Shown: one piece after another, positions 1 to 20,127 of the stretch
How positions within the stretch are numbered: position 1 is the stretch's first letter
Layout: each line of letters begins with the position of its first letter
The notes under the pieces: generated by a model
Seen by the model: the letters and a program-made list of their open reading frames with translations, nothing else
Database searches by the model: none
Told to the model about the DNA's origin: nothing
Origin: Candidatus Aminicenantes bacterium
Lineage (GTDB): Bacteria > Acidobacteriota > Aminicenantia > Aminicenantales > JAFGBC01
Reading direction: 5' to 3'
DNA length: 64,000 bases
Assembly (NCBI GenBank): GCA_963702005.1
Contig: OY969696.1
Coordinates: 3,136,001 to 3,200,000 of the forward strand
Translations under genes and position numbers: made by a program

Positions 1-39
1 AAACAGACTCGTTGTGCAATATTGTAGAGGGCATAATTT

Positions 40-645: not shown

Positions 646-654
646 TGGTTACGT

Positions 655-1653
655 ATGCATAAATCGAAGATTAACAATTCAAATAAAAGGAAAATTAATG
701 AATGGTGGAAGTCCATAGGTGAATCATTTGTCAATATAAAAATAAAAGGCCTCAGAGTTAAATGCCCGTCCTGTAAAGAAACCGGAATAATTATCACTAG
801 ATGGATTAAAGGCCCGAAACAAAAGCCTGCTTATGTATTGCATCTAAGAAGTAAGAAATTCTGTAGAATAACCCCCATTCAGTATCATAATTTGAAGAAT
901 AATATTTCTTTATTTGAGAGTGACATAAAGAACATATTGAATAAGCGAAAGTCTTTTGTTCTATTCAGCGGAGGTAAAGACAGCTTGGCAACTTTGGCTT
1001 ATCTGAAAAGTCTCACGAACGGATCAGGAAGGCATATTGCAGCTATTTATGTTGATACGACAGCAGGTCTCCCTGAAAACACAGAATATATAAAAAAGGT
1101 CTGCAGATATCTTAAGGTAAAACTGAAAATAGTAAGGCCAAAGGTTGATTATTTCACCCTCGTAAAAAAGTGGGGAATCCCAAGTTACCGATATAGATGG
1201 TGTTGCCGGGAACTAAAAATTAAACCGATTGAGGATTTTCTAGCTACCATCAAAGAACCAAAAGTAGTTTTTGATGGCATAAGGGCCGTAGAATCTAGGA
1301 TAAGAAAAGAATATATTCCTATTTGGTATCATCCTAGCTTCAAGTGCTTGTCTGTCAGTCCGATTTTCAATTGGTCTGATCAAGATGTAATATCATATAT
1401 AAATAGCAATGGCATTCCTAAAACCATATTACATTCGCTTGGTTCTTCTACTGAATGTTGGTGTGGAGCTTACAAAACCGAGACAGACTTTAGGAATTTA
1501 TATGATTTGAATAAGGTTATGTTTAAAAAATTAGCGAGAGTTGAAAAAGAGAACAAAAACCGATATACATTTCTTTATAAAAAAGGTCAAAAAATTTCCC
1601 TTAGAATTTTAGAAAAGAAGATTCTTAACGAAAAAAGGCAAGAAGCAAACTAG
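655..1653 (+). CDS. PAPS-reductase (CysH/DndC-like PP-loop) family protein with N-terminal CxxC
   Basis: FSGGKDS PP-loop, DTT, RWCCRELKIKP, GIRAVES, SPIFNWS and ECWC motifs. Confidence 0.85.
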   Translation: MHKSKINNSNKRKINEWWKSIGESFVNIKIKGLRVKCPSCKETGIIITRWIKGPKQKPAYVLHLRSKKFCRITPIQYHNLKNNISLFESDIKNILNKRKSFVLFSGGKDSLATLAYLKSLTNGSGRHIAAIYVDTTAGLPENTEYIKKVCRYLKVKLKIVRPKVDYFTLVKKWGIPSYRYRWCCRELKIKPIEDFLATIKEPKVVFDGIRAVESRIRKEYIPIWYHPSFKCLSVSPIFNWSDQDVISYINSNGIPKTILHSLGSSTECWCGAYKTETDFRNLYDLNKVMFKKLARVEKENKNRYTFLYKKGQKISLRILEKKILNEKRQEAN

Positions 1654-1727
1654 CTTTTTCCCAAAACCAGCGGTAATCCCCTCTTTCCCGCAGATTGACT
1701 ATTCGCTTTAATCCCTATCTAAAAGAT

Positions 1728-4691: not shown

Positions 4692-5220
4692 ATTTCCCTC
4701 TTAATTATCCTTTAGATATCTTCAGCTCAGGTTTAATAAAACTTTATCAGAACGCCTTAAATCTCTCAAGCACTATGATTTTGAGAAATTCAGAGGCTTT
4801 TTGCGTCTATGTAACTGAGGCGAACATCCCGCTCACGCGGTCTTTTTCGTAACCGGGAGGCCAGGGGAAACCCGGCCTCCGCCCGCCTCACTCCCTTCAA
4901 TTGGCCAAGTCTAAGCAGAATTTCGCTCTTGTTTTGATTCTACGTGTCTTTTTTGGCAGGGCCGAAGGCTAAGACCGGCCAGAAACCTGATAAAGCGCTG
5001 CTTTTAGGCCAACTCCCGGAAAAACAAGTCCCTAGAATGCCCGCAAGGCAATTTTTTCAAAGCGGTCAAGGCAACTTGCCCTAGGGATGGGGCCCGAATC
5101 GGGCTTACAGAAGGTCCGCTGACCCGATATAGCGGACCAGAGACGCCAATTCGCAGCTATCCTTGGGGATATTCATCTTCACTGGACTCGGTAGTCGCTG
5201 GCTTTGCGAAAAAACCACTT

Positions 5221-6354
5221 TCATTCCGAATCTCCTCCATTCTCTTTCTGATGCTCTTCCCTCCATTCAGGCATATAGAGATAATACAAATCAAACGAAT
5301 GTCCAACTCCTGGTTTGCTTTGTTCCGTGGCAATTCCGACAATCGTCTTGCAGTCCAAATTCAAACCTCTCGCTATAAAACAACGCACTCCGAGCTCGGC
5401 ACGTCTATATTTCCTTTCAATGGTATGAGGCAAGGCGAGCAAGACATAAATTATGCCAGAGGGAGAACGTAACATTCGAGCCCTCACCTTGTTCTGTGAG
5501 GACAGAAGAATGAATTCACGGAACAATTTCCCAAGGATTCTTCGGCTAAATCTATCTTCTCGGGCCATGGTCCTAAGAATAATGTCTCCATCGTCTGGCG
5601 AACTGCTGAATTCAAGATTTCCCTTCAATACGTCTTTTGCAATATCTTCAATTACATCGTCCCATAAATAGCTTATCTTATCTTCTTCTATTTTCCTCTG
5701 ATATTCTGGCTTTTTCGCAAAAGAATCCCATAACCCACCTTCTATATGGACAACATCATAATTCGCCGGAAGCTTTTTCCCTGAGTGCAAGTAGAGTGCC
5801 AAGAGGTTTTCTTCTCCTGCCAAAAAAGGCGTTTCTTTGCCGGCCATATAAAACTCCTCTTTTGCTGAGAGGTAACTGATAAAATCTAATATCGTATCGA
5901 GCTCTCGAAGGATTATGCTAAAAGACATCTCATCCAGAACATGAACGAATCCTTTTCCAAGATCTCCGTATATCATGGGGACCTTATCTTTGCTACCCAA
6001 AGCGACGACCACACGATGGAATTTCCGCTCATGTTCAGCCGGAAGCCTTAATTCTCGACTCCCGTTACTTTTTATTAGATGACTGGCCTTCTTAAGCCAT
6101 CGTTCCGCTCCGTAAACCTGTTTGGCGGACTCCTCTATGGCCTTGCGATTCCAGCGCTTCCAGTCTATCTGAATATCCTCACCTTCCGTTACGTTGATTT
6201 CCTTCACGCTAAAGACAACGATATCGGGTTCACAGACTATAAGAATGTCGCAGAGTTCTTTCCCGTTTTCCCTAGGGGGATTGGCATGGCTCCATAAAGA
6301 CAGAAATGTTTCTTGGCAGATATGAAAGACAAATTCTTCCGACTTGTTCTTCAT
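5221..6354 (-). CDS. Conserved hypothetical protein, nuclease-like N-terminus; possible C-terminal frameshift
   Basis: KELCDILIV..FSVK motif; an alternative frame continues to 5157 (..SEDEYPQG). Confidence 0.6.
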   Translation of the reverse strand: MKNKSEEFVFHICQETFLSLWSHANPPRENGKELCDILIVCEPDIVVFSVKEINVTEGEDIQIDWKRWNRKAIEESAKQVYGAERWLKKASHLIKSNGSRELRLPAEHERKFHRVVVALGSKDKVPMIYGDLGKGFVHVLDEMSFSIILRELDTILDFISYLSAKEEFYMAGKETPFLAGEENLLALYLHSGKKLPANYDVVHIEGGLWDSFAKKPEYQRKIEEDKISYLWDDVIEDIAKDVLKGNLEFSSSPDDGDIILRTMAREDRFSRRILGKLFREFILLSSQNKVRARMLRSPSGIIYVLLALPHTIERKYRRAELGVRCFIARGLNLDCKTIVGIATEQSKPGVGHSFDLYYLYMPEWREEHQKENGGDSE

Positions 6355-7319: not shown

Positions 7320-7368
7320 TGGCAGCGCTACGGGGATTCGAACCCCGGTCTGATGGCTGAGAACCACC
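7320..7368 (-). tRNA. tRNA-Glu(CTC) 3' half (att-site remnant)
   Basis: Minus strand GGTGG-TTCTCAG-CCATC..CGGGG-TTCGAAT-CCCCG..GCGCTGCCA; no 5' half. Confidence 0.8.
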
Positions 7369-7493: not shown

Positions 7494-7970
7494 ATGCCTA
7501 AAGCCCTCGTTTCCTATTATTCAAGGACGGGAAATACCAAGAAGATGGCCGCCCGGATCGCCGAGGTGCTCGAGTCGCAAGGCCTCGAGGTGGACCTGAA
7601 AACGGTAGCGGACACAGCCCCGGCTGATCTCCTCGGCTACGACTGCATCGTCCTCGGATCCCCAACTTATTACGGCTCCATGGCCTGGGAGATGAAGAAG
7701 CTTCTCGACGAGAGCGTCAAGTTCCACGGGAAGCTCCGGGGGAAGGTCGGCGGGGCTTTCACCTCTTCGGCCAACATCGGAGGGGGCAACGAGACGACCG
7801 TCCTCGATATCCTCCAGGCGCTCCTCATTCACGGCATGGTCGTCCAGGGGGATCACAGGTTCGACCATTATGGCCCTGTCTCGGTCGGCCGGCCCGACAA
7901 GAGGTCGCTCGACTGTTGCGAAGCCCACGCCAAGAACCTGGCCGCCCTAACAAAAAAACTTTTCTCTTAA
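7494..7970 (+). CDS. Flavodoxin / WrbA-family NAD(P)H oxidoreductase
   Basis: YYSRTGNTKKMA, GSPTYYG and GGAFTSS..GGGNETT motifs; start set at ATG 7494 after AGGAGG. Confidence 0.9.
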   Translation: MPKALVSYYSRTGNTKKMAARIAEVLESQGLEVDLKTVADTAPADLLGYDCIVLGSPTYYGSMAWEMKKLLDESVKFHGKLRGKVGGAFTSSANIGGGNETTVLDILQALLIHGMVVQGDHRFDHYGPVSVGRPDKRSLDCCEAHAKNLAALTKKLFS

Positions 7971-8322
7971 ATTCTCGACGCCCCGCCTTGACGGGGGGCT
8001 GTGGGACGCCCGCGGCCTACGCGAGGGCGTTGGAGGGGGTATCCAAGCGCTTTTGCATTATACTGGACCGATTTGAGGGGGGCAGGTCAATGATCAGTCC
8101 CAAACTTACTTGACATCTCATTGCGTTGTGATGTATTCGATCATTTAGGGGAAATTCATTCTGTGTGTAAACACCCACTCGGCTGACACAGCATAAAATG
8201 GATTTCCGTTAAACTATTACGGAAAAGAAGGTGAAGCATCCCCGTTATCCCAACTCCAAGGCTTCCCCACCTCTAGAGCGGAGGGCATGGCTTTAGTTGA
8301 CATATTTGCACAGGAGGCAAAA

Positions 8323-9939
8323 ATGATCAAGAAAGCTTCGGTACTTTTCATTTTTTTGCTTTTTATCCCCTACGGCAACACAGCAAGCGGACAGGATCTT
8401 AGGCTTCCCTATAAGGGTCAAATCTGCAGTGATGACGTTGCATTTAGCATCTTTAGCTTATGCAAAGGCCCTGCGGGCTATTTTTCTATTGAAGACGCAA
8501 AGAATCTTACTAGCACCTTCAAAGCGGACACGAAGGGTCTGGGCACCGCTGCGTATTTCACCATTAAAAATGAAGCCAACAAGAGTTCGGCTATCATGGC
8601 GATAACAAACGGGTTGGGACCTGCGGCGCAATTTTTGACATCAAACGTGAATACCTTTGGAGACACGCTTTTATCCGAGACCCAAGGGCGCGGGAGTTCG
8701 GCCGGGCATTTTGTCACTTCGTCAAATAAAAATATATTTGTGACACTTCGATCAGAAACTTATGGACGGGGGCCGGCAGGCCAATTCGCGGTATTCAATC
8801 CCGATAGCGATGCGAATGCGCTCATTTCCTCAACCGCAGGAATCGGTCGGGCTGGAATATTCACCTGCTACAATAGAGATAATTGGAGCCCGGCATTTCA
8901 AGCTTGGACCTCGGGGAAAGGAGCTGCTGGCTATTTTCAGATTGAAAATCCAAATAACATATTTCCCGCTGTTTATGGAACTTCAAGTGGTTTAGGAAAT
9001 GGTGTGCTTGGCAGCAGCACCGGCTCAAGCGCTGCAGTCCGTGGCTATGCAGATGGCGAAGGGAGCTCAATTTATGGGTATAAAATAGGTAATGGTAACG
9101 CCGGGACCTTCATAAATGGAGATGTAAATAACGAGTCTCCCGCGCTCCGAGTGGAAAACCGTGGGGAGCTTGGTACAGCTGCGATTTTTGAAAACTCAGC
9201 TGCAGCCTGGACCGATAGACCTACGATAGCAGCTATTAACAGAGCTGGTGGTCCTGGTCCGGCCGTGGCAGGATTGTTCTTTGGCTGGGTTGTGGTGCGG
9301 GGAAATTTACGTGCAGATAATGCTGATTTTTGGAACCTTGATGTTTATGGCACACTCACAAAATATTCGGGGAGTTTCAAAATCGACCATCCCTTGGATC
9401 CTGAAAATAAATACCTCTACCATTCATTTGTAGAAAGCCCTGATATGAAAAACGTATACGACGGAGTTGTCGCCTTGGATAAAGCGGGCGAAGCTTGGGT
9501 GAATCTTCCTGATTATTTTGAGGCTTTGAACCGCGATTTTCGCTACCAGCTCACTCCCATTGGTGGGCCCGCCCCCGACCTTCATATTGCGGAGAAGATC
9601 TCAAACAATAAGTTCAAAATCGCCGGAGGCACGCCCGGCTTGGAGGTATCCTGGCAAGTAACGGGAATACGGCAGGATGCTTATGCCAAGGCTCATCCGA
9701 TCATTCCGGAAGTCGAAAAAGAAAAAGAGAACCGTGGCAAATATCTAACACCCGCAGAATTTGGGAAACCGGATGAGTTAGGAATACACCCTAAGAAACG
9801 CGATCAAGAATATGTCAACAAGATATTGACACAATTAGAGAAGCAAAAAGAAACTGATAAGAAAGATATTGACAATTTATCTAAGGCCTTAAAGCTCCTC
9901 AAGGAACAGGGAAAAGTTTCTGATGCAGTGCATAAATGA
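8323..9939 (+). CDS. Secreted Gly/Ala-rich repeat protein with conserved C-terminal domain (GSFKIDHPLDPENKYLYHSFVESPDM)
   Basis: Signal peptide, repeated GxG.AGxF units, AGGAGG RBS; lower GC than host genes. Confidence 0.75.
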   Translation: MIKKASVLFIFLLFIPYGNTASGQDLRLPYKGQICSDDVAFSIFSLCKGPAGYFSIEDAKNLTSTFKADTKGLGTAAYFTIKNEANKSSAIMAITNGLGPAAQFLTSNVNTFGDTLLSETQGRGSSAGHFVTSSNKNIFVTLRSETYGRGPAGQFAVFNPDSDANALISSTAGIGRAGIFTCYNRDNWSPAFQAWTSGKGAAGYFQIENPNNIFPAVYGTSSGLGNGVLGSSTGSSAAVRGYADGEGSSIYGYKIGNGNAGTFINGDVNNESPALRVENRGELGTAAIFENSAAAWTDRPTIAAINRAGGPGPAVAGLFFGWVVVRGNLRADNADFWNLDVYGTLTKYSGSFKIDHPLDPENKYLYHSFVESPDMKNVYDGVVALDKAGEAWVNLPDYFEALNRDFRYQLTPIGGPAPDLHIAEKISNNKFKIAGGTPGLEVSWQVTGIRQDAYAKAHPIIPEVEKEKENRGKYLTPAEFGKPDELGIHPKKRDQEYVNKILTQLEKQKETDKKDIDNLSKALKLLKEQGKVSDAVHK

Positions 9940-9989
9940 TTATGGAACCGGCAGAAAGGCAGAGATCCGACTGCGTGATCGTCTGGCGC

Positions 9990-10215
9990 CTCGGCCCGTA
10001 GTAGCGTAACCCGCTCAAAGACACGGGACGCCGGGGGGCTTCTCCGCCACGAACGGCAACTTCAAGTGTCCGATGATCCGGTCCCCGGCGGCATACTCGG
10101 GGATAAAGGCAGCAACCTTCATTCGGCCGCTACATTTGGGACAGGGCATCGGGTTCACCTCATAGGCCTTCCGGATCATGGCCGTCTAGCCCTTTAGGAA
10201 TACCGTTGGCAGAGA
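9990..10215 (-). pseudogene. C-terminal remnant of IS91/ISCR-family rolling-circle transposase
   Basis: Minus-strand translation KG*TAMIRKAYEVNPMPCPKCSGRMKVAAFIPEYAAGDRIIGHLKLPFVAEKPP matches the WAxMIRKVYEVDPLxCPxCGGxMKxIAFI..HL tail; W replaced by TAG. Confidence 0.7.
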
Positions 10216-10222
10216 GACCAAC

Positions 10223-10437
10223 TTGTGACCAAATTGTGACTATCCCCGGTATATTTCCATATAATTTGGTACACCTCCGTATACCTAGAAACAAGTCATA
10301 AATTGTAGAAAAGACTGACTATTACTTTATAATGAGGAGGTTAGGGAAACCGGCCGGATCGGATTCGAAGTCCATCGCTCTATCCACTGAGCTACGGGCG
10401 CGCCGGAGGCGACGCACGTAAAATCAATAGGATTCTT
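10223..10437. repeat. ~215-bp direct repeat, copy 1 (arm plus tRNA-Arg half)
   Basis: Aligns by eye end to end with 14138-14353; copy at 17636-17748 has an internal deletion. Confidence 0.9.
10361..10401 (-). tRNA. tRNA-Arg(TCG) 5' half, copy 1
   Basis: GCGCCCGTAGCTCAGTGGATAGAGCGATGGACTTCGAATCC, then similarity to tRNA ends. Confidence 0.9.
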
Positions 10438-10731
10438 CCCGATTCCCGGGATGAAGTCAACCCCTTCTACCTCCAGTCATCAGGCTGCACTCACGGGCCG
10501 TTAGCACGGCTCCATGAGTACAGGCGAAGCGCCGGGACTATATAAGGGTAGTCCTGAGCCTTGCGAAGGGCAACTCCCCGAAGCCACGGCTTGAATGCGG
10601 TCCTGAAATAGAAGTCACAATTCGACCAAAATATCCTTCTGGAGCGATGCCGTCTTTAGGGGGGCGTGCTTATGATCCTGGCCGCCGCGATGATCAGGGA
10701 TGAAAATACCGTACCTCAACGCTCCCGCACA

Positions 10732-11232
10732 TCACAGCTCCTGGTCTTTCCAGGCCCCGGTGTATATCGCGGTGCCTTTGCATTCCTGAAGAACGACGTG
10801 ACAGATCCGCATTCCCGGCGTCAGCCTTATCTTATTCCGTCCGGCGTTGTAGATCTCCAGGATCTGCCTGTTCGAGATCCCCGGAGCCAGGAACGGGGCC
10901 GCGATATGGCTCATGAGCCCGATCCGGGCGAATCTCGAGCGCGAATTCAGCCAGCCGCACACGTCCCCGGGGAGAGTGATCCTCTCCTTCGTGATCCCGA
11001 GCACCAGCTCACCCGGCTCCAATAGATAGCCGTCAGTGATGTCCATGAGCTTGGCCAGAGTTTTGTAGTCTATGTCGGCCCTCGTGATGTGCTGGTCGCT
11101 ATTGAAGACGCGCAACTTGTTATCCAACGTCAGATCGATCGACGCGGGGCCGACGGCAGCCTCGTCATAGGGCTCTATCCGGATCCTGCCCTCATGGATC
11201 TGCCGGAGAATTTCGGGTTTCGCCAGGATCAT
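10732..11232 (-). CDS. dcd: dCTP deaminase
   Basis: MIL..EI..I, PASIDLTL, RSRFARIGL, LEIYN..I.LTPGMRIC motifs. Confidence 0.9.
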   Translation of the reverse strand: MILAKPEILRQIHEGRIRIEPYDEAAVGPASIDLTLDNKLRVFNSDQHITRADIDYKTLAKLMDITDGYLLEPGELVLGITKERITLPGDVCGWLNSRSRFARIGLMSHIAAPFLAPGISNRQILEIYNAGRNKIRLTPGMRICHVVLQECKGTAIYTGAWKDQEL

Positions 11233-11525
11233 CTTGAACGCTCTCTCAGGCTCATCATCGAGACCCTCCTTGACCGGAATGCGCGCCGGTCGTGCCATCT
11301 TGGCGACGGGGCGCCGGAACGAGCATCATATGCAAAACCCGAGGGTATTTCAACGGGGAGGGGTCTGCCTTCGCCGCCCTTTCCTCAAGAATATAATAGT
11401 CACAATTTGGTCACAGGATGCATCAGCCGGGGAAGAGCCTCCCCTACTTCTTATTGATAATGCAGGGGGATGAGGGGCTGTACCGGCGCAAGGACGCTGG
11501 AGGGGGTATCCAAGGATCTTGTTTG

Positions 11526-13952
11526 TTATTTCTTCAGCAGTATCTTTGAAGAATACGGAGGAAGGGTGATGCTGCCGCTGACAGCATGATCATCCAGGTC
11601 GTATAAGGTTCGCTGCAGGGCAAATTTCTTTGTTGAATTTGTTTTATTGATAAATATCAAATTACGCTTCAATGGGTCATCGTACAAGACTTTGACTTTC
11701 TGTAGGCAGATATTATCCAGCCAGTAATCCGGCGCATTCGCGTTGACATCATAATCTATGCGAGCAGGGTCAGTCCTGTAAGTGGGCGTAAAAATTATCC
11801 TATGGTCTTTTCGTTTTGAATCGACAAAGACGGTTTTATGCATTTCTAAATTCCCATAGGTTGTTGCGTCCCTTGTTTGCACGTCCACTGTGCCGGGCGC
11901 CAGAGCAATCGTGCTGAATGAGAGTTCGTATGCTTGCCCCGCCTCTAGGCCAAAATAGTTATGATTATTGCAGGCGACGCCATCATAACAGTGCAGGTGC
12001 CAGCTTCCATTGTTTAATTGATCGTTGATACCCCAGGATGAAGTGCAAGTATTGGTGGGCGACCAGCACGCCCAGCCGTCTATATTAGAATTAAAATCTC
12101 CATTCACAATGAGGTTGCCGCTTTCTATATCTATCACGGAATAAGCATTCCAGCTGACATGGCTGGACTTGGCGCTCGCATCTTTTAGGGCCTTCCACTG
12201 ACTGACCGTATACAAGAGATAGCGGTTGACTTTGTTCTTTTGGCTTATTGTAGAAATAGATAATTCATTGTAGGGGCTGCAATAATAGTTACCGGCATAA
12301 GTCGCGAAATCCAAATTCCTGTTCTCCCAATTGGTAAGCATCAAGGGATAACTATCTTCATCCACAGAATATAATATATTTTTCACAATCGTATTGTTTG
12401 ATACGGGAGTCGTGCTAATACTATCCTGGCTCATTAATATCGATCCGCCTTGGCAGTTAAATAGCGTATTTCCGTTGATCGTATTGTTGATACTGTTGTG
12501 CAGAAAAATGCCCGCGGCCGCGCAATTGACGACGGTATTATTCTGGATAAGAGCATTGCCGCTGCCATCGTCCATATAGATCCCGTCCGCACCACCAGTT
12601 TTGTCCGGCGTAGCCTGATAATTCCCGATTCCATTTTGGATAACATTATTGCGGATAACGCAGCCTGTCCCATTACGGTTGATATGGTCGTTATTACTCC
12701 AGGTATAAATGGCGGCGCCATCGTCGGTGGTCAGGCAAAACTTATTTATCAGATTATTTTCAATCCGTGTATTCTTTGAATATTTCAAACCACAATAGCC
12801 GATGCTATCCAGGCTATTAAAACTGATATTTCCATTATCGATATCGCCTTCGATCTGCATAGCGTAATAGCCAATCTCATCTTTGGTGGCCCTGCCTGCA
12901 TATAAGCCGATACGCTTTAATGTATTGTTCTGAACAATGATATTCTTACAATCCCATGTACTTATCCCCATTCCGCAAATATCCGTAATGATATTATTTT
13001 TAATGAGAACATTATCAACGCTCTGAAGAAATATAGCTTTTGAATAGATCGCATTGAAACGGCATTGCTGGATAGAAATATCGGTATAACCGTAATCCGC
13101 ATTCACTCCATTGACCTGCTGGTGCCTGAAACTGATATGGCTGATGTGGATATAGCTTACGTGCTCTATATTAATTCCATACTCGTATACGGAAGCTTCT
13201 GATGAACTGTTTGAAGGCAAAGAAGCTGACCACAGGTAGAGTTCTTGTTGTGATGGATTGAAATAAAATTCACCGGCCGTATCTAAGGCTTCCATTTTAT
13301 TGCTTAAGAAATAGCCCCAGCCGTTTGTAAAATCATATTCTATCGGGTTGGTCATGGTGATATTGCCATCGGCAAATGACTCCACTTCGTGTTCGCCATA
13401 TTGCCAGCGTACCATGCGGTTGTGAAGTGTGGCGCCGTTCCAGTATCCCTTCGTTTGCGTTAATTCCGCATCGTAAAAGCCCTTTTTGCCGTTGGCCTTG
13501 TCAATCGTTAAAAAGCCACTGTTGGGATAGCGCGCGGGCAGGCACAGCGTACTGTTATAAAAAACCATTACGGGATTTATCTTCAAGGCAGCTTTATAAA
13601 TCTTGCCTTTGTGTAGTGACCAGTTGTTGACATATTCACTGCCGCTGATTACAGGTAAAGCGCCATTGCCATAAGAGGTGATGATGATGGGCTGTGAGGC
13701 AGTGCCGGACTGCTTAATATTCAACTGCCCACGAAATGTATCGCCGCGCTTAAATAATATATTATCTCCTGGTCTCAATGCGATCGTATTAAGTTTAGCA
13801 ATTGTTTTGAATGGCGTCTTTGATGAAGTGCCGTTGTTGTGATCGTTGCCATTAGCGGCGATATAATAATCTGTTGCATAGGCTTGCAGGGATGCAGCAA
13901 GAAGGAAAATGAAAACCACAATTTTTTTTATGAATTTCCATTTATTCGGCAC
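11526..13952 (-). CDS. Secreted right-handed parallel beta-helix protein with C-terminal carbohydrate-binding-like domain
   Basis: Signal peptide, YYIAANGND.N.GTS..PFKT, PbH1 repeats (GIYMDDGS), NLIVNGDF module; AT-rich. Confidence 0.85.
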   Translation of the reverse strand: MPNKWKFIKKIVVFIFLLAASLQAYATDYYIAANGNDHNNGTSSKTPFKTIAKLNTIALRPGDNILFKRGDTFRGQLNIKQSGTASQPIIITSYGNGALPVISGSEYVNNWSLHKGKIYKAALKINPVMVFYNSTLCLPARYPNSGFLTIDKANGKKGFYDAELTQTKGYWNGATLHNRMVRWQYGEHEVESFADGNITMTNPIEYDFTNGWGYFLSNKMEALDTAGEFYFNPSQQELYLWSASLPSNSSSEASVYEYGINIEHVSYIHISHISFRHQQVNGVNADYGYTDISIQQCRFNAIYSKAIFLQSVDNVLIKNNIITDICGMGISTWDCKNIIVQNNTLKRIGLYAGRATKDEIGYYAMQIEGDIDNGNISFNSLDSIGYCGLKYSKNTRIENNLINKFCLTTDDGAAIYTWSNNDHINRNGTGCVIRNNVIQNGIGNYQATPDKTGGADGIYMDDGSGNALIQNNTVVNCAAAGIFLHNSINNTINGNTLFNCQGGSILMSQDSISTTPVSNNTIVKNILYSVDEDSYPLMLTNWENRNLDFATYAGNYYCSPYNELSISTISQKNKVNRYLLYTVSQWKALKDASAKSSHVSWNAYSVIDIESGNLIVNGDFNSNIDGWACWSPTNTCTSSWGINDQLNNGSWHLHCYDGVACNNHNYFGLEAGQAYELSFSTIALAPGTVDVQTRDATTYGNLEMHKTVFVDSKRKDHRIIFTPTYRTDPARIDYDVNANAPDYWLDNICLQKVKVLYDDPLKRNLIFINKTNSTKKFALQRTLYDLDDHAVSGSITLPPYSSKILLKK

Positions 13953-14003
13953 CTGTTCATCCTCTCCTTAAAGCTCGGAATTTATGCCTTCCATCCCGAG
14001 ATG

Positions 14004-14033
14004 ATGCTACTCTCGGCCGCGCGTCGATGTCAA
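14004..14033 (-). promoter_or_regulatory. Cassette-borne sigma70-like promoter
   Basis: TTGACA-N18-TAGCAT; homologous to 17505-17534. Confidence 0.6.
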
Positions 14034-14275
14034 GAAATCCTCGGAACGGCCAAGAAGAGTATACTTGGGGCGAAAAACCCTCCTGGACCGACTGAAAGAT
14101 GATAGACTCCAGCTTCCCTTGATAATAGGATGATCAATTGTGCCCAAATTGTGACTGTCCTCGGTATATTTCCATATACTTTGGTATACCTCCGTATACC
14201 TAGAAATAATTCATAAATTGTAGATAAGACTGACTATTACTTTATTTTGAAGAGGTTAGGGAAACCGGCCGGATC

Positions 14276-14316
14276 GGATTCGAAGTCCATTGCTCTATCC
14301 ACTGAGCTACGGGCGC
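14276..14316 (-). tRNA. tRNA-Arg(TCG) 5' half, copy 2
   Basis: One substitution versus copy 1; same breakpoint. Confidence 0.9.
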
Positions 14317-14406
14317 GCCGGAGGCGAGGGACGGAAAAGCAACTAGGATTCTTGAGGTTTACCTGCTTGGAGCGGCCGGAATATTGGGGTTGTTTTGGCC
14401 GGGTGT

Positions 14407-15234
14407 TTATTGTTCAGCGTCCGCTTTTTTCCTTCGCTTAATAATATTTTTTGAACCGATTCTTTTCAAGACCGGCATTACAACAAAGAATATTCTGGGA
14501 AAGGCCATGACCGTCCGGGCCAAAACACCCATGCCCGAAGGCACCACGATCTCCGGTTTCTTGCTGTCTGCGGCCCTGAGGATCGCCGAAGCCACCTTTT
14601 CGGGTTTCATCGCCTCTCCGATGAAGGAGAGCACGGCCTCGTCATGAAGAAGCTCATAGCGCAGCTGGGCCGTTTCCACGGAATCAGGACAGACCACGGT
14701 CACTCGAATCCCGGTTTCCTTCAGCTCGGCCGCCAGGGAAAAAGAATAACCCCGGATGGCCGCCTTGGTGGCGCTATAGACGGCTTCGCCGGGCATGGGA
14801 ACGATTCCGCCCAGGGAAGCCACATTGATGATCTTCCCGGAGTTCTGTTTCTTCATGACGGGCAAAACAGATCGGCAGCCATGGATATTCCCCATGAAGT
14901 TGACGGAAATCTGCTGGTGAATTTTCGGCCAGGGGATGGTCTCGGCCCCCCCGGGATGGACGACGCCCGCGTTATTGACCAGGATATCGATTCGACCATA
15001 GCGCTCGAGGACCTTTTCGACCATCGTCCGCCAGGACTCGGGATCCGTCACGTCGTGCTCGATCCCCTGAGCCTCGATCCCCTCTTTTTTCAACTCATTT
15101 TCCAGAGAATCGAGAGGTTCTTTGCGGATGTCCGCAAGAATAAGGACGGCCCCCTCTCGGCCCAGGCGACGGGCCGTGGCCGAGCCGATTCCTCCGGCCG
15201 CTCCGGTGATGATCACGACTTTGTTTTTGACCAA
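14407..15234 (-). CDS. SDR family oxidoreductase
   Basis: TGAAGGIG, NNAG and YSATK motifs. Confidence 0.92.
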   Translation of the reverse strand: MVKNKVVIITGAAGGIGSATARRLGREGAVLILADIRKEPLDSLENELKKEGIEAQGIEHDVTDPESWRTMVEKVLERYGRIDILVNNAGVVHPGGAETIPWPKIHQQISVNFMGNIHGCRSVLPVMKKQNSGKIINVASLGGIVPMPGEAVYSATKAAIRGYSFSLAAELKETGIRVTVVCPDSVETAQLRYELLHDEAVLSFIGEAMKPEKVASAILRAADSKKPEIVVPSGMGVLARTVMAFPRIFFVVMPVLKRIGSKNIIKRRKKADAEQ

Positions 15235-15405
15235 CGGAGTCCTCCTCTAGTAAGTTATTTCGGCCGCGAGCCTGTTCGACAACTCGCTTTTAAGGATTTT
15301 ACCAAACCTGACAAGAAAATATAAGAATCCAGAATTTCGCAAGCCTGTAGGCTTCGACTCCGCTTAATTTAACGGGAGGGGATAGGGGAAAACGGGAATC
15401 TGGGG

Positions 15406-15450
15406 TGGTGGAGCTGATGGGACTTGAACCCACGACCTCTTGACTGCCAG
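15406..15450 (-). tRNA. tRNA-Ala(GGC) 3' half
   Basis: CTGGCAG-TCAAG-AGGTC-GTGGGTTCAAGTCCCAT-CAGCTCCACCA; starts exactly at the anticodon loop. Confidence 0.88.
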
Positions 15451-15527
15451 GGGAACAGTCACAATTTAGTCACAATCAGCTTCTGAGGTCAGCATCCCTC
15501 CCCTCTTTTCCTTAATAATATTGGAGA

Positions 15528-17498
15528 TCAAGGGCGCTGTGGGCGTGAGGGCGTTGGAGGGGGTATCCAATGACTATAGAGGGCGACAATCTCGAAATTG
15601 GCGGTGATCGTCTTGGGACCGTTCATCGTTATCTTCAAAGGATTCTGAAGGCTGGAGATGCTGCCGCTCCAATTCCGAAACTTGCAGCCGGCTTTAGGGA
15701 GGGCGCTCAGGGTGAGCTGGGTTCCGGCCGGGACATAAAAGACGCCAGCCCCGAGATCGGTGCGCCCGTGCGTATTCGCAGCGATCGTGAGCTTGTGGAA
15801 ACGCACGCCCCCCTTCTGTCTCTCATAGGCGCCGATATCCGTTACAGCCGTGCCATCGCCGTTCCCGTCCGCGCCCCGGGGATATCCGGCCAGATCGAAT
15901 GCCCCCGGATCCGTTCCGCTCGTCGCCCCCATGTCGATCGCAGGAGAGGTGGCGTGGAGACTGTAATCCGTCTGCGCCGGAGCGACAAACTGGGGCGACA
16001 GATAAAAGTTCCCGTTGCTCCCCCGATATCGCGCGTCTCCGAGGATACAATTTCGGACCAGGGCCGGCCTTTTGGAACCGACGATCCGGTCGTTATTCCG
16101 GTTTTTCCAAAGGATGGTGTTGGCGATTTTGATGCCGGAAACGACGTTTCCGAAACTGTTGTTATTGTTTTCGATGTTGATGCCGCCCGCCCAATCCGTG
16201 GTTTTCCCGTTCTCGACCAAGGTGTTGTTCAGAAGCGTAACGTCCCTTACGATATTATTGTCGCTGTTATCGAATCCGCCCAGCAAAACCATGCCCGCTC
16301 CGTCGTTTCGGGCGATCAGGTTATTGGCAAACTTGATCTTTTCGACCGTGTTATTCTTGGCCTTAAAGGATGCGCCCTGAATCTGAAAGCCGTTGAAGAC
16401 GCAATTCAGGATCTTGTTCCGGTTGATGAGGACATCGTCGATGCCATTGTCGTGGCCGGACATGGAGCCGCCGACCAGCATGATCGATCCTTTTACAACG
16501 ATATTTCCCTCGATGGTCGCGTGAGAGACGTGATTATCCTTGGCGTCCTTTCCCACGCCGCCGAGGACCTCGATCCCACAGTCACCCTCGGGGTTCTGAA
16601 TATAATTGTTCCTGATGAAGAGGCTTTCGATTCGGTTTCCCTGGGATTTGGAGCAGTTGGCGCCGGAGATAAGGATGGACGTGCCCTTGTGACCCCGGAT
16701 CGTGTTGTCCAAAATCTCCAGATCGGAGATGACGTTGTTTGTCGCGTTCGGCCGGGTCGCGGAGGCGAAGATGGCTCCGGTGTTGTTGCTGTTATTGGAA
16801 ATCAGATTACCCCGGATGGTGATGTTGGCGATCCGGTTGTTGGAGTTGGTCGAGGTACCTATCGCGGTGTCGATGGTGATGCCCCAACTCCCGTTGTTGA
16901 CAAGGCGGTTCTGGAGGACATCGATGTGATTGACGACCCGGTTCGAACCCGAAGCAGCGATAGAGATTCCCGACCATCCGACGGTGATCGTGTTTCCGAG
17001 AAGGGTCACCCGTTCTACCCGCGACACGCCATCTTCGGCGAAAGCCGCGACCGTAATCCCGGTCCATTCGATATCCCGGATCGTGAATCCGGCGATCGTG
17101 ACGTCGGAAGCCGTGATCCAAAAACAATCATGGGCCGTTCCCTGTCTGCCATCGAGGGTGATATCCGGCTTGCCGTCGTTGTCGATATCGCCGTTGATTT
17201 TCAGACCACCCTTTGTCAAAGCCGGCAACCCGTCGGAGACGGAGATGGTGGCGCCCTTCAAAGACGGATCGAAGCTGATCGAAAGGGATTCCACCGCGGC
17301 ATTGGCCGCGAGCATAGCTTCCCGGAGCGAGATTCCATCAGGCCCCGGGTCGTTGACCAGTGCGTCCGGACTTGATGTGTCCCCGTTCACCGTGTCGCTA
17401 TTGTTTGTAACGCGCAACGAGCTCACTTGGCTGGCCGGCGCGAAGGAGAAGAAAACGAGAATGCCTATCCATGTCGATATTCGGAGCTGGAGGGACAT
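15528..17498 (-). CDS. Secreted beta-helix protein with choice-of-anchor-Q-like and InlB-B-repeat-like C-terminus
   Basis: SLREAM.AAN, Asn-rich PbH1 repeats, SPAID.G..DIGAYE, F.NWSG..ITANF; start moved to ATG 17498. Confidence 0.8.
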   Translation of the reverse strand: MSLQLRISTWIGILVFFSFAPASQVSSLRVTNNSDTVNGDTSSPDALVNDPGPDGISLREAMLAANAAVESLSISFDPSLKGATISVSDGLPALTKGGLKINGDIDNDGKPDITLDGRQGTAHDCFWITASDVTIAGFTIRDIEWTGITVAAFAEDGVSRVERVTLLGNTITVGWSGISIAASGSNRVVNHIDVLQNRLVNNGSWGITIDTAIGTSTNSNNRIANITIRGNLISNNSNNTGAIFASATRPNATNNVISDLEILDNTIRGHKGTSILISGANCSKSQGNRIESLFIRNNYIQNPEGDCGIEVLGGVGKDAKDNHVSHATIEGNIVVKGSIMLVGGSMSGHDNGIDDVLINRNKILNCVFNGFQIQGASFKAKNNTVEKIKFANNLIARNDGAGMVLLGGFDNSDNNIVRDVTLLNNTLVENGKTTDWAGGINIENNNNSFGNVVSGIKIANTILWKNRNNDRIVGSKRPALVRNCILGDARYRGSNGNFYLSPQFVAPAQTDYSLHATSPAIDMGATSGTDPGAFDLAGYPRGADGNGDGTAVTDIGAYERQKGGVRFHKLTIAANTHGRTDLGAGVFYVPAGTQLTLSALPKAGCKFRNWSGSISSLQNPLKITMNGPKTITANFEIVALYSHWIPPPTPSRPQRP

Positions 17499-17504
17499 TA
17501 ATTC

Positions 17505-17534
17505 ATGATATTCCCGGCCGTGCGGGGGTGTCAA
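17505..17534 (-). promoter_or_regulatory. Cassette-borne sigma70-like promoter
   Basis: TTGACA-N18-TATCAT, 6 nt upstream of ATG 17498. Confidence 0.6.
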
Positions 17535-17647
17535 GAAATCCTCGGGACGGCCAAGGCGCGATTATCAGGAAATAAACCTTCCTGCGCCGCCCAAATTACA
17601 GCTGACTTATACTCCCCGTGATCATGAGATGATAATTGTGGCCAATC

Positions 17648-17688
17648 GGATTCGAAGTCCATTGCTCTATCCACTGAGCTACGGGCGC
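17648..17688 (-). tRNA. tRNA-Arg(TCG) 5' half, copy 3
   Basis: Identical to copy 2; preceded by TTGACT-N17-AAGAAT at 17748-17720. Confidence 0.9.
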
Positions 17689-17766
17689 GCCGAAGGCGAG
17701 GGACGGAAAAGCAACTAGGATTCTTCCCGATTCCCGGGACGAAGTCAAGCTAGACTTAAATCCAGT

Positions 17767-19899
17767 TCAATTTATTTTGAGCTTCGCGACGAAAGCGTCC
17801 GTGTAGCCGCCGGCGTTCCCGGCCTGGTACGGGTTGAGGACGGGCAGGTCGATGCTGTTCGTGAAGCCCGTCAGGAAAATCCCGCCCTGGGCATCCAGCT
17901 CTAGTCCCGAAAGCGCGTCCGAATAGGACCCTCCGAAGAGCGTGGAAAAGTACAGGCTCCGCCCGTCCCGCGAGAAGGCGGTCAGAAAACCGTCCCAGGT
18001 CCCCGACTTAGCGGCCTTGATGGCGTTTTTGACCGGGAAATAGACGCTGCTCGTCTCGCCCACGACATAGGCGCGCCCGTCGGCGTCGACCTTGAGGTCA
18101 AACGGAATCTCCTCGCCTTCCCCTCCCAGGTAGGTCGCATAGACGAGGGTCTTCCCGTCCGGACCGACCTTGGCTAAGAAGGCGTCGGCGGCTCCCGACC
18201 GGTTCTTGCGGAAAGCGTTCTTGACCGGGATGGTGCCGTAGGTGTATCCCGTTATATAGGCCGCGCCTTGGCCGTCGACCGCGACCGAGCAGCCGAACTC
18301 CATATTGGGACCACCCAGGTAGCTGCAGTATTCGAGATCGCCTCCGGACGGCGCCAACTTGAGGATGTACGCGTCGGTAAAGCCGCCGCCGTACTTTTTC
18401 TGGAACGCGTTCTTGACCTGCAGGTTCAAGGTGCCCGTCGACCCGATCGCGTAGACGGCCCCGGCGGCGTCGACCTTCAAGTCCGCAATCGAATTGTAGA
18501 ACCATCCGGACAGGCCAAGATCGTTCTCGTAGACCTTGGTCTTCCCATCGGCCTCGAGCTTCAGGATAAAGATGTCTGCCCCGCCGCCGATGACGCCCCG
18601 GTTGACAGGACCCCTGAACCCGCCATTGCCCTTTAGCCCCCCCAGGTAGAGAGCGCCCTTGGCGTCGACCGCCAGGGCCTCTACGGATTCCTGAAACGGG
18701 CCGCCGAGGTACGAGGAAAAGACCAGGCTTTTTCCGTTGGGGGCCAGCTTGAAGAAGAAGCCATCCATCCATCCGCCGCCGTATTTCGGCTGGTAGGCGT
18801 TTTTGACGGGGAAATGCTCGTTGTCAGTCATCCCCCCGAGGTAGGCGGCGCCCGACGGGTCGACTTTGAAGAGCGCCGCGCCGGAGTGCAAGAAGGTGTC
18901 GATGTTAACGCCGTTGAGCGGCCTGCTCCGAAGCGCGACCGGATCGGCCAGGACGCTTTCGGTCTTGCTCGCGGCCCCGATAAATCCCCAGAACCCGGCC
19001 GGGAAAAATGCCGAATACACCAGGCTCTTGCCGTCCGGCGCAAGCTTGGTGATGTAGGCGTCTATGCGCGGCTTATGGGCTTTGTTAGGGGGAAAATCGA
19101 TGCTGTCCGTGTATCCCGTGACATAGACCGCGCCGCTCGGGTCGATGCCGATCCCCCAAGCGTTGTCCATGGTTCGGCCGCCAAGGTAGGTCGAAAAGAC
19201 GAGGACTAACGGATCGATCACGAGCTCGCGGCCCCGATCATAGGGGCCCAATTCGAAACCGTAAGCGCCGCCGCTCAGGGGCCGGAACGCCGCCTCGACC
19301 TCGACGTGAGTTCCGTCGACGACCTGATAAGCGCGCGGCTTCTGGTGCTCGAGCTCGCCCGCGGCGGATTTGACGACAATCCCGCCGTCCCGATCGAGGC
19401 GGGCCTGGACGTTCCCCTCATAGCCGAACCGGATCTGACCCGGATCGGAGCCGGGCCGGACGATCCAGTCGTACTCGACCGTCTTCGCGGTCCCAAAGAC
19501 CTTGAGGTCGACACCCTCATAGACACCGCGGTAGAAAACGCCCCGCGACGTCGGGATGCCGGTGTGCCAGTCCGTCTCGTCCCGTCCGTCGAAATAGCTC
19601 ACATAATAGTCCGCCGGGTCGACAGCCCGGACCTCCACACCCGGCCGGACGTTCTCGAGGATCATCCGTGCCCCGTCGAAGAGCAGCTCGCGCCGGGTCA
19701 GCCGGAGCGTGTAGGCCGGCGTCTTGGCGTAATAAAGGGTCTCGGCATCGGTCTGCCCCTGGTTGGCGATGAAATAGAGCGGGACATCGCCGAAGCCGGG
19801 CTCGGCTTGGACCGGGAGCGTCTGTCCCGGCCGCGCCGTCGAGAGCGCCGCGACCAGGAGCAATAGACCGAGCGAAGCTGGGATGATAAGCTTTTTCAT
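17767..19899 (-). CDS. Secreted SBBP beta-propeller repeat protein, paralog A
   Basis: Signal peptide, PLYFIANQGQ N-domain, LVIDP, repeated STYLGG..AVD..G.AY.TG.T.S..FP. Confidence 0.9.
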   Translation of the reverse strand: MKKLIIPASLGLLLLVAALSTARPGQTLPVQAEPGFGDVPLYFIANQGQTDAETLYYAKTPAYTLRLTRRELLFDGARMILENVRPGVEVRAVDPADYYVSYFDGRDETDWHTGIPTSRGVFYRGVYEGVDLKVFGTAKTVEYDWIVRPGSDPGQIRFGYEGNVQARLDRDGGIVVKSAAGELEHQKPRAYQVVDGTHVEVEAAFRPLSGGAYGFELGPYDRGRELVIDPLVLVFSTYLGGRTMDNAWGIGIDPSGAVYVTGYTDSIDFPPNKAHKPRIDAYITKLAPDGKSLVYSAFFPAGFWGFIGAASKTESVLADPVALRSRPLNGVNIDTFLHSGAALFKVDPSGAAYLGGMTDNEHFPVKNAYQPKYGGGWMDGFFFKLAPNGKSLVFSSYLGGPFQESVEALAVDAKGALYLGGLKGNGGFRGPVNRGVIGGGADIFILKLEADGKTKVYENDLGLSGWFYNSIADLKVDAAGAVYAIGSTGTLNLQVKNAFQKKYGGGFTDAYILKLAPSGGDLEYCSYLGGPNMEFGCSVAVDGQGAAYITGYTYGTIPVKNAFRKNRSGAADAFLAKVGPDGKTLVYATYLGGEGEEIPFDLKVDADGRAYVVGETSSVYFPVKNAIKAAKSGTWDGFLTAFSRDGRSLYFSTLFGGSYSDALSGLELDAQGGIFLTGFTNSIDLPVLNPYQAGNAGGYTDAFVAKLKIN

Positions 19900-20127
19900 G
19901 CGATCCTCCTTAATTCCTGAAAAATTTTTCTTTTTTAGAATTTTATCGCCATTCCCTTCGCCATGTCAACCCCTCGACACCCATACTAAGCCGTTTCCGG
20001 CTTAGTATGAGGTAACATGATAGCGGAACGCACCTCCCTGACGAGTAACGCTGTGATACATTACTCGATGAATAAGAATCTCATAAGGAGGTGCGCGGCA
20101 GCCTTGCAGTACTCAGGGCTTCCATGA

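Follow-up and report, generated by a model that had tools for sequence, protein, structure and literature searches.

Genomic islands that pile up at one tRNA gene are a known kind of element. In Table 1 of the Islander catalogue, 159 of 3919 islands have a 5′ tDNA fragment and 2083 an anticodon-centred site; 125 tandems of two or more islands and 4 of three or more are counted, a tandem member being accepted only with its own integrase (PMC4383910). The tycheposons of Prochlorococcus are reported to form stacks in which newcomers push older elements inward, leaving partial tRNAs and degenerate elements (10.1101/2020.12.28.424599). Here we analysed a window of 64,000 nucleotides from a Candidatus Aminicenantes genome (the whole stretch under study; contig OY969696.1, 3,136,001–3,200,000), in which three repeat units (about 7993–10460, 11399–14353 and 15458–17748; coordinates are in window numbering unless marked 'genome') combine a broken tRNA-Arg gene with a conserved AT-rich arm and a cargo gene. 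We read these units, with a probability of roughly 0.6, as attachment (att) junctions of tRNA-Arg islands that displace 5′ fragments of their target, serially stacked and now integrase-less. What is new in them is an order-wide 135-nt arm with separable repeat classes, together with recurring integrase-free arrays and sharp, shared cargo borders. A preliminary description of the same DNA had held that this is not a described element, which was too strong, as Islander catalogues anticodon islands with 5′ fragments (PMC4383910) and the tycheposon report describes stacking (10.1101/2020.12.28.424599).

The array shares with the 5′-fragment class of Islander an intact tRNA gene with co-oriented 5′ fragments upstream, a break in the anticodon loop, low-GC, gene-rich DNA and tandem arrangement; it departs from that class in that its three units lack an integrase and that the stubs on their other side come from tRNA-Ala and tRNA-Glu. 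Tycheposons resemble it as tRNA-targeting tyrosine-recombinase elements with cargo, stacked and with leftover partial tRNAs (10.1101/2020.12.28.424599). They differ in carrying an integrase and usually a replication module and in belonging to another phylum with other integrases, whereas the units here have a long conserved arm with 2 + 4 repeats. The cis-mobilizable elements (CIMEs) related to streptococcal integrative and conjugative elements are small and att-bounded, lack recombination and transfer genes, stand in tandem with integrase-bearing relatives and are proposed to move by means of a helper integrase; they derive from conjugative elements at the 3′ end of a protein gene. The units may be comparable to CIMEs, as we understand their description, in att-type boundaries and in the absence of recombination genes: all three have one end of the attL type, opposite which stands an inverted double repeat with stubs from foreign tRNAs, and no recombinase lies inside. 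Unlike what the origin of CIMEs would suggest, no conjugation genes were seen in the units.

The repeats that define the units are real and lie far beyond chance. Repeat search and sequence reading gave a 205-nt repeat (10223–10427 versus 14138–14342, 92% identity), an 81-nt repeat in three copies (at 10358, 14273 and 17645; 84–99% identity), a junction block in three copies (repeat D3) and a 51-nt block before two of the cargos (repeat D4; 14004–14054 versus 17505–17555, 84% identity). The 16-mer TGGAGGGGGTATCCAA has 3 matches in the window against 0.00 expected from 100 shuffles, and the 17-mer double repeat GTCACAATTTGGTCACA, at up to 2 mismatches, has 4 against 0.00 expected; the 16-mer has no other site in the genome, which is one 4.31-Mb contig with a mean GC of 0.604. 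Three inverted pairs (I3, I5 and I6; 22–25 nt, 88–92% complementary) place a GTCACAATTTGGTCACA-type double repeat on both sides of cargo 2 and of cargo 3. Read along the minus strand, each unit runs from a promoter-like block through positions 1–41 of tRNA-Arg(TCG), the 135-nt arm, the cargo gene, the junction and about 80 nt to the inverted double repeat. Units 2 and 3 have a hairpin and promoter-like block inserted between arm and cargo, of which three further copies occur in a sister species (G001, part of the same-genus set among the 41 related genomes searched, labelled G001 and so on). The spacing of the units is 3915 and 3372 nt. Within the arm, an IHF-like site is followed by four phased GTATAC-type repeats and, at the far end, by two GGTCACAAT repeats 11 bp apart.

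Five flank features had been placed by the preliminary description, and the repeat search located all of them at those positions, including the left double repeat at 11399 and 15458, which unit 1 lacks. The inverted arm at 10223, 14138 and 17636 is complete in units 1 and 2, but unit 3 is a deletion derivative that keeps the last repeat only; likewise, similarity ends at TATCCAA among the three copies, but unit 1 matches its sister-species copy for 45 bases more. The features are given below, with promoter-like sites scored as matches out of 12 bases.

17691–17748, minus strand: unit 3 upstream block with promoter-like TTGACT-17-AAGAAT (site 17748–17720, 9/12); repeat D9, 97% identical to 10428–10460.
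17648–17688, minus strand: unit 3 tRNA-Arg(TCG) 5′ fragment, positions 1–41, outermost of the array; 97.6% identical to the intact gene, with GC 0.60 just beyond.
17636–17647, minus strand: truncated arm of unit 3 with the last GGCCACAA-type repeat only, about 125 nt being deleted relative to units 1 and 2 (sequence reading).
17505–17556, minus strand: terminator-like hairpin (17556–17540) and promoter-like block before cargo 3; D4, TTGACA-18-TATCAT, 11/12.
15528–17534, minus strand: cargo 3, secreted-looking, with C-terminal Flg_new_2 (PF18998, E 3.1e-11); an ATG near 17499 is the likely true start.
15555–15573, plus strand: unit 3 junction core CGTTGGAGGGGGTATCCAA, start of the genus-specific left flank (repeat D3, 16-mer sites).
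15458–15475, plus strand: double repeat GTCACAATTTAGTCACAA, in the orientation opposite to that of the arms (pairs I5 and I6; 17-mer scan).
15406–15450, minus strand: tRNA-Ala(GGC) 3′ fragment, positions 32–76, 97.8% identical to the intact tRNA-Ala(GGC).
14407–15234, minus strand: short-chain dehydrogenase (SDR) gene between units 3 and 2; Pfam adh_short, E 3.1e-57; GC 0.57–0.58.
14276–14316, minus strand: unit 2 tRNA-Arg(TCG) 5′ fragment, 97.6% identity.
14138–14272, minus strand: complete 135-nt arm of unit 2 with the IHF-like site, four GTATAC-type and two GTCACAAT-type repeats (repeat and alignment).
14004–14056, minus strand: hairpin (14056–14038) and promoter-like block before cargo 2; D4, TTGACA-18-TAGCAT, 10/12.
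11526–13952, minus strand: cargo 2, an 808-aa right-handed beta-helix protein (Pfam Beta_helix 2.2e-15, NosD 2.2e-08); GC 0.38–0.47.
11498–11516, plus strand: unit 2 junction core, 10 nt past the cargo 2 stop (D3, 16-mer sites).
11399–11415, plus strand: left-flank double repeat GTCACAATTTGGTCACA of unit 2 (17-mer scan; inverted pair I3, 92%).
10732–11298, minus strand: dCTP deaminase (dcd) gene between units 2 and 1; Pfam DCD, E 2.2e-41; single copy.
10402–10460, minus strand: unit 1 upstream block with promoter-like TTGACT-17-AAGAAT (site 10460–10432); D9.
10361–10401, minus strand: unit 1 tRNA-Arg(TCG) 5′ fragment, 100% identity.
10223–10357, minus strand: complete 135-nt arm of unit 1, 92% identical to that of unit 2.
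9985–10176, minus strand: relic of an IS91-family (Y2) transposase, last ~55 codons, directly after the arm (translation; 78% DNA identity to the genome's other relic, E 3e-33).
8287–9939, plus strand: cargo 1, 550 aa, without a Pfam match and on the strand opposite to the other cargos (open reading frame and Pfam scan); GC 0.44–0.50.
8031–8049, plus strand: unit 1 junction core, without a double repeat after it; 92.6% identical over 68 nt to the sister-species copy.
7320–7368, minus strand: tRNA-Glu(CTC) 3′ fragment, an att-type stub at the inner end of unit 1 (tRNA comparison).

The tRNA-Arg 5′ fragments all refer to a single gene. The sole intact tRNA-Arg(TCG) lies 56 kb left of the window on the minus strand (genome c[3079782-3079855]), and each unit carries positions 1–41 of its 74, identity stopping after CTTCGAATCC, that is, after the anticodon loop and 3 nt more. 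Four such 5′ fragments are present (genome 3081709, 3146401, 3150316 and 3153688), all upstream of the intact gene and on the same strand; the one outside the window is 1.8 kb upstream of that gene, with one SBBP-repeat gene in between. As in tRNA islands, an intact target is accompanied by co-oriented upstream 5′ fragments that break at the anticodon loop. The tRNA-Ala(GGC) stub, for its part, begins with the first base of its anticodon loop and is separated from the double repeat by 8 nt. ARAGORN called none of the three window fragments as a tRNA. The preliminary description had recognized the tRNA-Arg(TCG) 5′ half in each unit, which we could confirm; it overlooked the 3′ stubs beside the left flanks, which derive from tRNA-Ala(GGC) and tRNA-Glu and not from tRNA-Arg. 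An intron-containing or split tRNA is excluded by the intact tRNA-Arg(TCG) elsewhere and by opposite stubs that come from other tRNAs.

The DNA between the fragments and the intact gene is foreign in composition and content. GC in 3-kb bins is 0.38–0.57 over genome 3076001–3153000 and 0.60–0.61 from 3154001, directly past the unit 3 fragment. Between the inner and outer fragments lie 39 open reading frames (ORFs) of at least 150 aa, among them three with Phage_integrase, two HerA-like, Abi_C, NERD, an Eco57I-type methylase, a PAPS-reductase-like protein, ParB and RadC. The units themselves are integrase-less, as had been claimed: the Phage_integrase profile has no match in 7993–17748. Nor do the ORFs flanking the intact tRNA-Arg(TCG) have an integrase domain, the nearest of the 12 Phage_integrase matches in the genome being 11 kb away. 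In our assessment, the three units are probably the outermost members of a stack of ~74 kb of foreign DNA upstream of the sole tRNA-Arg(TCG).

Two other regions deserve mention. Left of unit 1, window 1–6354 and genome 3090001–3136000 form a defence-rich mosaic with genes for a PAPS-reductase-like protein, a 987-aa Eco57I-type methylase, NERD, Abi_C, two HerA-like ATPases, a Cdc6-like AAA protein, ParB and RadC. A second small locus with the same set of parts lies at genome 1791925–1794429 (L002 ~7925–10429) and adjoins an ORF with a phage-tail-collar domain. It has an inverted double repeat, a tRNA-Glu 3′ part that ARAGORN called as a 68-nt tRNA, a tRNA-Arg 5′ half bearing an arm that matches the one of unit 2 at 92% identity, with a third double repeat 1.7 kb further on.

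Outside this genome, the arm recurs across the order. Searching the related genomes, all of them below 98% ANI to this one, with the unit 2 arm, and counting only matches that extended past the tRNA part, we found it in 10 of 41, in four families (f1, f4, f7 and f9) and as one partial match in f3, often with two to four arms per contig, 2.7–10 kb apart. A pattern from its most conserved block gave at least 117 metagenome stretches, of which 80 were fetched; 74 were distinct, and all metagenome arm counts (denominators 71, 69, 62, 59 and 44) rest on these 74 distinct copies among the at least 117 listed. Named records with the same arm are labelled Candidatus Aminicenantes. A tRNA-Arg-like 5′ half is present in 42 of 71 copies (24 CCG, 12 TCG, 1 CTG, 1 TCA and 4 unread), the double repeat stands at a fixed 101–102 nt in 52 of 69, and an inverted double repeat lies upstream in 9 of 62. 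In 8 of the 29 listed copies without a full 5′ half, tRNA likeness starts at ATAGAGC and other 11-bp-spaced repeats come before it (by eye), which is the look expected of an element-borne site and not of a host junction. Of 59 first ORFs that follow the arm, 0 are integrases, 7 are Ser/Thr kinases with a zinc ribbon and 19 lack a Pfam match, the others being of many unrelated kinds; 22 of the 59 lie on the other strand. Before the arm, the first ORF is an integrase in 1 of 44. The search and tabulation that the preliminary description had proposed, made here in relatives and metagenomes, found a widespread arm beside very diverse genes.

Alignment of 48 arms gave a mean column identity of 81%, with likeness ending right after the last copy of the double repeat; the consensus reads ...TAACCTCCTGAAAACAAAGTAATAGTCAGTCTTATCAGCAAnTTAC..., four GTATAC-type repeats and then GGTCACAATTTGGTCACAAT. 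Within it, TATCAGnnnnTTA fits what we take to be the IHF consensus, and the GTATAC repeats vary as direct repeats, not as complements (GTATGCC in some genomes; by eye). RNAalifold, run as a single-strand fold with RNA parameters, predicted 0 pairs and 0 kcal/mol for the 48 arms, and Rfam at E values up to 1 returned only tRNA- or tmRNA-like pieces, which speaks against a structured RNA. The arm had 0 matches among viral contigs, and a phage that carries it was dropped as a candidate. The arm appears to behave like protein-binding DNA, with putative roles for its repeats. In layout it resembles lambda attP, judged by consensus sequences that we assume: ~115 nt separate the arm-type repeats GGTCACAAT (for lambda, presumably C/AAGTCACTAT) from the crossover, this interval contains a WATCARNNNNTTR-like site and phased repeats, and the complete site would span roughly 240–300 bp. 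Unlike in lambda, the left flank of the units misfits the spacing.

The double-repeat motif is linked to tyrosine integrases. The exact 18-mer GGTCACAATTTGGTCACA occurs at more than 119 loci of the species-genome collection, in many phyla, compared with ~17 expected by chance (our own arithmetic over 596 Gb). We obtained 82 motif instances in 80 fetched loci, 11 of which have at least 100 in-frame codons upstream; 8 of these 11 frames are Phage_integrase, 7 of them above the curated cut-off, and the motif there reads G-H-N-L-V-T near the C terminus. Other instances lie 100–150 nt from tRNA 3′ parts (by eye). The bare 18-mer is also found in 16 viral contigs in mixed contexts. In this genome, motif sites with up to 3 mismatches number 13, against 1.7 by chance (composition-based estimate).

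Several double repeats were seen besides these. One viral contig has at least 7 tandem GGTCACAATTT units (L335:2001–2090), and in two others the double repeat stands immediately before an ORF starting MASLRKRGKSWQIDYY, which may be integrase-like. Within the array, at genome 3090860–3090880 (L045), an 11-bp-spaced double repeat, GGTGACACAAAAGTGACACA, lies ~190 nt past the stop of a 353-aa integrase; this variant suggests that each integrase lineage may have its own dialect of the arm site.

Integrase-bearing elements of the same 5′ construction exist in the order. A ~10-kb element in G023 has an integrase beside tRNA-Arg(TCG), an HTH_17 protein and a displaced 5′ half, and the same 11-bp GGGCACC double repeat is found in both of its arms, in direct orientation, at ~95 and 165 nt. 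The integrase ORF of G032 overlaps the first bases of an intact tRNA-Arg(CCG), and in G019:C34 the integrase stop comes ~20 nt before a degenerate core, which is followed by a full copy of the arm. The view of the flanks as att-type DNA of a tyrosine integrase is supported. In G017, three integrases lie 0.9–2.5 kb upstream of arms, the third as a truncated 224-aa frame, and tRNA-Arg or tRNA-Ala(GGC) 3′ parts are found directly past the stops of two of the three, an arrangement that parallels the tRNA-Ala stub of unit 3. Integrases of one family adjoin arms in G019 and G017.

Stacks also recur. In the complete genome G017, a stretch of 43 kb contains 4 displaced 5′ halves together with an intact tRNA-Arg(CCG); of its 35 ORFs of at least 130 aa, none is a tyrosine integrase and three are Ser/Thr kinases. 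A double repeat and promoter lie 107 nt upstream of this intact gene, as expected if the last arrival supplied its front half. In G028, 2 displaced halves lie upstream of an intact tRNA-Arg(TCG).

We propose that a lambda-type tyrosine integrase would insert an element by crossover in the anticodon loop of tRNA-Arg, and that the incoming element, unlike most tRNA islands, would supply a new promoter and a new tRNA 5′ half. The old 5′ half would be pushed upstream and stay joined to the 135-nt arm of the incoming element. This arm would serve as a protein-docking platform comprising the GGTCACAAT arm-type repeats, the GTATAC-type quartet and the IHF-like site, and the four phased GTATAC-type repeats may bind an accessory or excision factor. 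Repeated insertion would line up 5′ fragments in one orientation, with an arm and then the carried DNA behind every fragment, and each unit of the window would represent one acquired secreted-protein gene with its own promoter-like block and without a recombinase. We infer that the array originated by serial integration, and that its three units are now stranded, or could at most be moved by an integrase from another source.

Of the three cargo proteins, the first (550 aa) has no Pfam match, the second (808 aa) is a beta-helix protein and the third (668 aa) carries Flg_new_2. No similarity among them was found by BLASTP (best E 0.055, 4.9 and 0.43), in agreement with the claim that they are non-homologous or very distant; the signal peptides claimed along with this are putative, judged by eye from hydrophobic N termini. 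Cargos 1 and 2 have a GC of 0.38–0.50 against the genome mean, and the dcd and SDR genes of about 0.57–0.59. These last two had been called ordinary genes separating the units. Pfam confirmed both identities, but dcd is doubtful as an ordinary gene. It was found in 2 of 5 related genomes searched, the same-genus genome and two complete genomes from the order giving no match, and its DNA is 87% identical over 520 nt to a copy in another family (L358:9507–10026), above the 77% of the best gene match to the same-genus genome. Because it is single copy, patchy and this similar across families, we take dcd, too, as transferred DNA: it has itself probably been transferred, and the sequence suggests that the horizontal transfer of this nucleotide-metabolism gene was recent.

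The sister species supplies a direct comparison. Its contig G001:C192 has the same left flank, tRNA-Ala stub and a copy of the promoter block around a different cargo of 7.4 kb, which agrees with the preliminary picture of the same flanks with changed cargo. The two same-genus genomes are too fragmented and diverged to show synteny or empty sites, and neither the cargos nor dcd nor SDR had a DNA match in them. The cargo borders of units 2 and 3 are identical, at the −10 box on one side and at TATCCAA on the other.

A number of findings weigh against serial stacking of tRNA-Arg islands. No unit has matching halves, the two sides deriving from different tRNAs, and given these mismatched halves and the tRNA-Ala and tRNA-Glu stubs, simple one-site accretion fails for the left flank. 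Only 8 nt separate the left double repeat from the loop break, less than a lambda-like arm would need. Its orientation is also opposite to that of the right arm, and the repeats of the bona fide element in G023 are direct. The left flank, from the junction to the inverted double repeat, is confined to the genus (3 of 41 genomes matched, one by the 25-nt repeat only). It looks like the relic of a second att junction, which may have been directed at tRNA-Ala and carried along. The exact borders of units 2 and 3 look more like gene exchange between fixed borders, since independent decay of three islands would not give exact shared borders. The upstream region of the intact tRNA-Arg(TCG) of this genome has no double repeat, all 13 motif sites are more than 2 kb away from the nearest of the 12 Phage_integrase matches, and the genome's best relatives of the arm-linked integrases are only 31–34% identical. 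Moreover, we assume by analogy both what the repeats bind and the form of the IHF consensus. With these misfits of left flank, stubs, borders and integrases, the cassette idea of the preliminary description stays alive.

A separate candidate for the junction and left flank, the remnant of an integrase 3′ end, was dropped after tblastn of six integrases against six copies (best E 0.11).

The cassette idea would make the units live, non-autonomous cassettes, excised as circles by an outside tyrosine integrase and re-inserted at tRNA-Arg or another att site. We consider this possible but doubtful. Unrelated genes do stand between the same flanks with sharp common borders, and the sister species pairs the same promoter block and left flank with its 7.4-kb cargo. 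The arm is strongly conserved and far outnumbers linked integrases, as in the listed copies above and in the 43-kb array of G017, and one integrase family adjoins arms in both G019 and G017. By contrast, the arm copies within this genome are only 84–92% alike, which argues that there has been no recent movement here; the genome has no close cognate integrase; unit 3 has only a truncated arm, and unit 1 has no left double repeat. Elements of the 5′ type, in addition, keep their integrase at the end far from the arm, so its scarcity beside arms is partly expected.

A broader form of this idea, in which tRNA-Arg genes serve as gene-capture platforms in the order and recombinase-less cassettes of one to few genes are moved in trans, is likewise a tentative one. 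The att module may then be a ~290-bp assembly of inverted double repeat, promoter, tRNA-Arg 5′ half and 135-nt arm, and a rarely linked integrase of the G019:C34 type may insert and remove cassettes in trans. Integron-like arrays may result, with the anticodon loop as 'attI', and genes for secreted proteins and Ser/Thr kinases, and even dcd, may spread between families. The likeness to integron arrays lies in a row of one-to-few-gene units with unrelated contents, a recombination-site-like repeat and growth from a fixed site; the differences are a 135-nt unstructured arm and a tRNA half in place of a folded attC, units with their own promoter-like blocks and no integrase beside the insertion site.

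The preliminary description had spoken of an 'integron-like or MITE-like shuttle' (MITE, miniature inverted-repeat transposable element). What survives of this are the unrelated cargos and sharp shared borders; a close cognate integrase and an attC-like fold were not found. As a mechanism, integron-like recombination is contradicted by the 0 pairs in 48 arms, which leave no attC imperfect hairpins (RNAalifold), by cargos with their own promoter-like block and by the lack of an integrase beside the target tRNA, no IntI adjoining the insertion site. MITE-like is wrong for units that carry genes of 550–808 aa; a matching double repeat is opposite in only 9 of 62 listed copies, and no target-site duplications were seen by eye at three complete copies.

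Local duplication of one flank set, followed by homologous exchange of genes with the flanks as homology arms, is an unlikely source of the units. The flanks, 84–99% identical over 50–205 nt, would be sufficient for RecA-type exchange, the left flank and promoter block are genus-restricted, and the unit spacing of 3915 and 3372 nt is regular. Such a history leaves unexplained why the tRNA half is broken at the anticodon loop in every unit, why the same arm stands beside tRNA-Arg halves in other families and why the array has its geometry relative to the intact tRNA.

The IS91 relic in unit 1 raises another possibility, rolling-circle capture of the IS91/ISCR type, with the chassis as a truncated end of an IS91-family element, which would mobilize or activate neighbouring genes in the manner of ISCR elements from an outward promoter at its origin end. 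Such elements are common in the order: C-terminal pieces of the family were found in 31 of 41 related genomes, a single genome having as many as 19 matches, and full-length genes of 422–423 aa with Y2_Tnp and Zn_Tnp_IS91 exist in relatives (L064:5590–6861 and L065:4785–6053). The fusion of arm to IS91 relic is also seen, by eye, in G033 and G017, from two other families. Against this, only the last ~55 codons of a transposase are left in unit 1, no unit is bounded by a Y2 transposase with defined ends, and the best transposase frame open in this genome is 223 aa, not a full-length gene. The full-length copies have no arm within the stretches examined; against 19 IS91-bearing loci, the promoter block of units 2 and 3 gave no BLAST match at E values up to 0.01 and the left flank gave marginal matches of 28–33 nt only. 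We therefore regard IS91 capture as very improbable.

At L039 near 8283 in G033, the arm is joined inside the zinc-finger region of the transposase. A by-eye likeness of the promoter block to an IS91 3′ end was dropped for want of a BLAST match in the 19 loci. Ends of Tn7-like or other DDE transposons, suggested by TGTGAC termini, were set aside, as the breaks lie in anticodon loops and the motif tracks tyrosine integrases.

That the tRNA half and arm form regulatory DNA or a non-coding RNA, as leader or operator of a downstream gene that is often a Ser/Thr kinase, is more improbable still. Promoter-like sites precede the tRNA halves, and the zinc-ribbon kinase downstream in 7 of 59 listed copies is always co-oriented, but there is no consensus RNA fold and no Rfam family, 22 of the 59 first downstream ORFs lie on the other strand, the neighbours are otherwise unrelated, and such a role leaves no room for the tRNA break point or for the links to integrases. 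Chimeric joins in the assembly are scarcely credible for short (up to 216 nt), diverged (84–92%) repeats in a single 4.31-Mb contig whose architecture recurs in other assemblies.

Should the arm work as a recombination handle, it would provide a sequence tag by which to find flexible genes in a lineage that is widespread in sediments but uncultured, a natural case of recombinase-less cargo serviced in trans at a tRNA gene and a compact att site with separable repeat classes. If the units are only scars, they would still account for a low-GC region of 80 kb, for three calls of a 'broken tRNA' and for the unusual position of dcd. For annotation, tRNA-Arg 5′ halves with their own promoters should be read as island junctions and not as genes. 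A literature search combining the lineage with integrase and tRNA returned nothing on the subject by title or abstract, supplementary files lying outside its reach.

Two gene families were conspicuous near these features. One encodes the Ser/Thr kinase, whose N terminus carries a zinc ribbon; no other gene follows the arm directly as often, and it always has the orientation of the arm. It occurs at L038:7437–9701, L041:6984–10055, L004:6556–8118 and L142:2086–4017 and at 7 metagenome loci, and the same neighbourhood is seen in G022, G023, G017 and this genome (at 3.53 Mb). DUF7948/SBBP beta-propeller genes stand in tandem at window 17767–19899, 21483–23540 and 34938–36995, the first adjoining unit 3, and belong to a paralogue family with more than 40 full-length tblastn matches genome-wide (31–86% identity). 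Left of the second of them, 90 nt at window 20007–20096 match at least 10 contigs of G001 at 84% and represent an unrelated short dispersed repeat.

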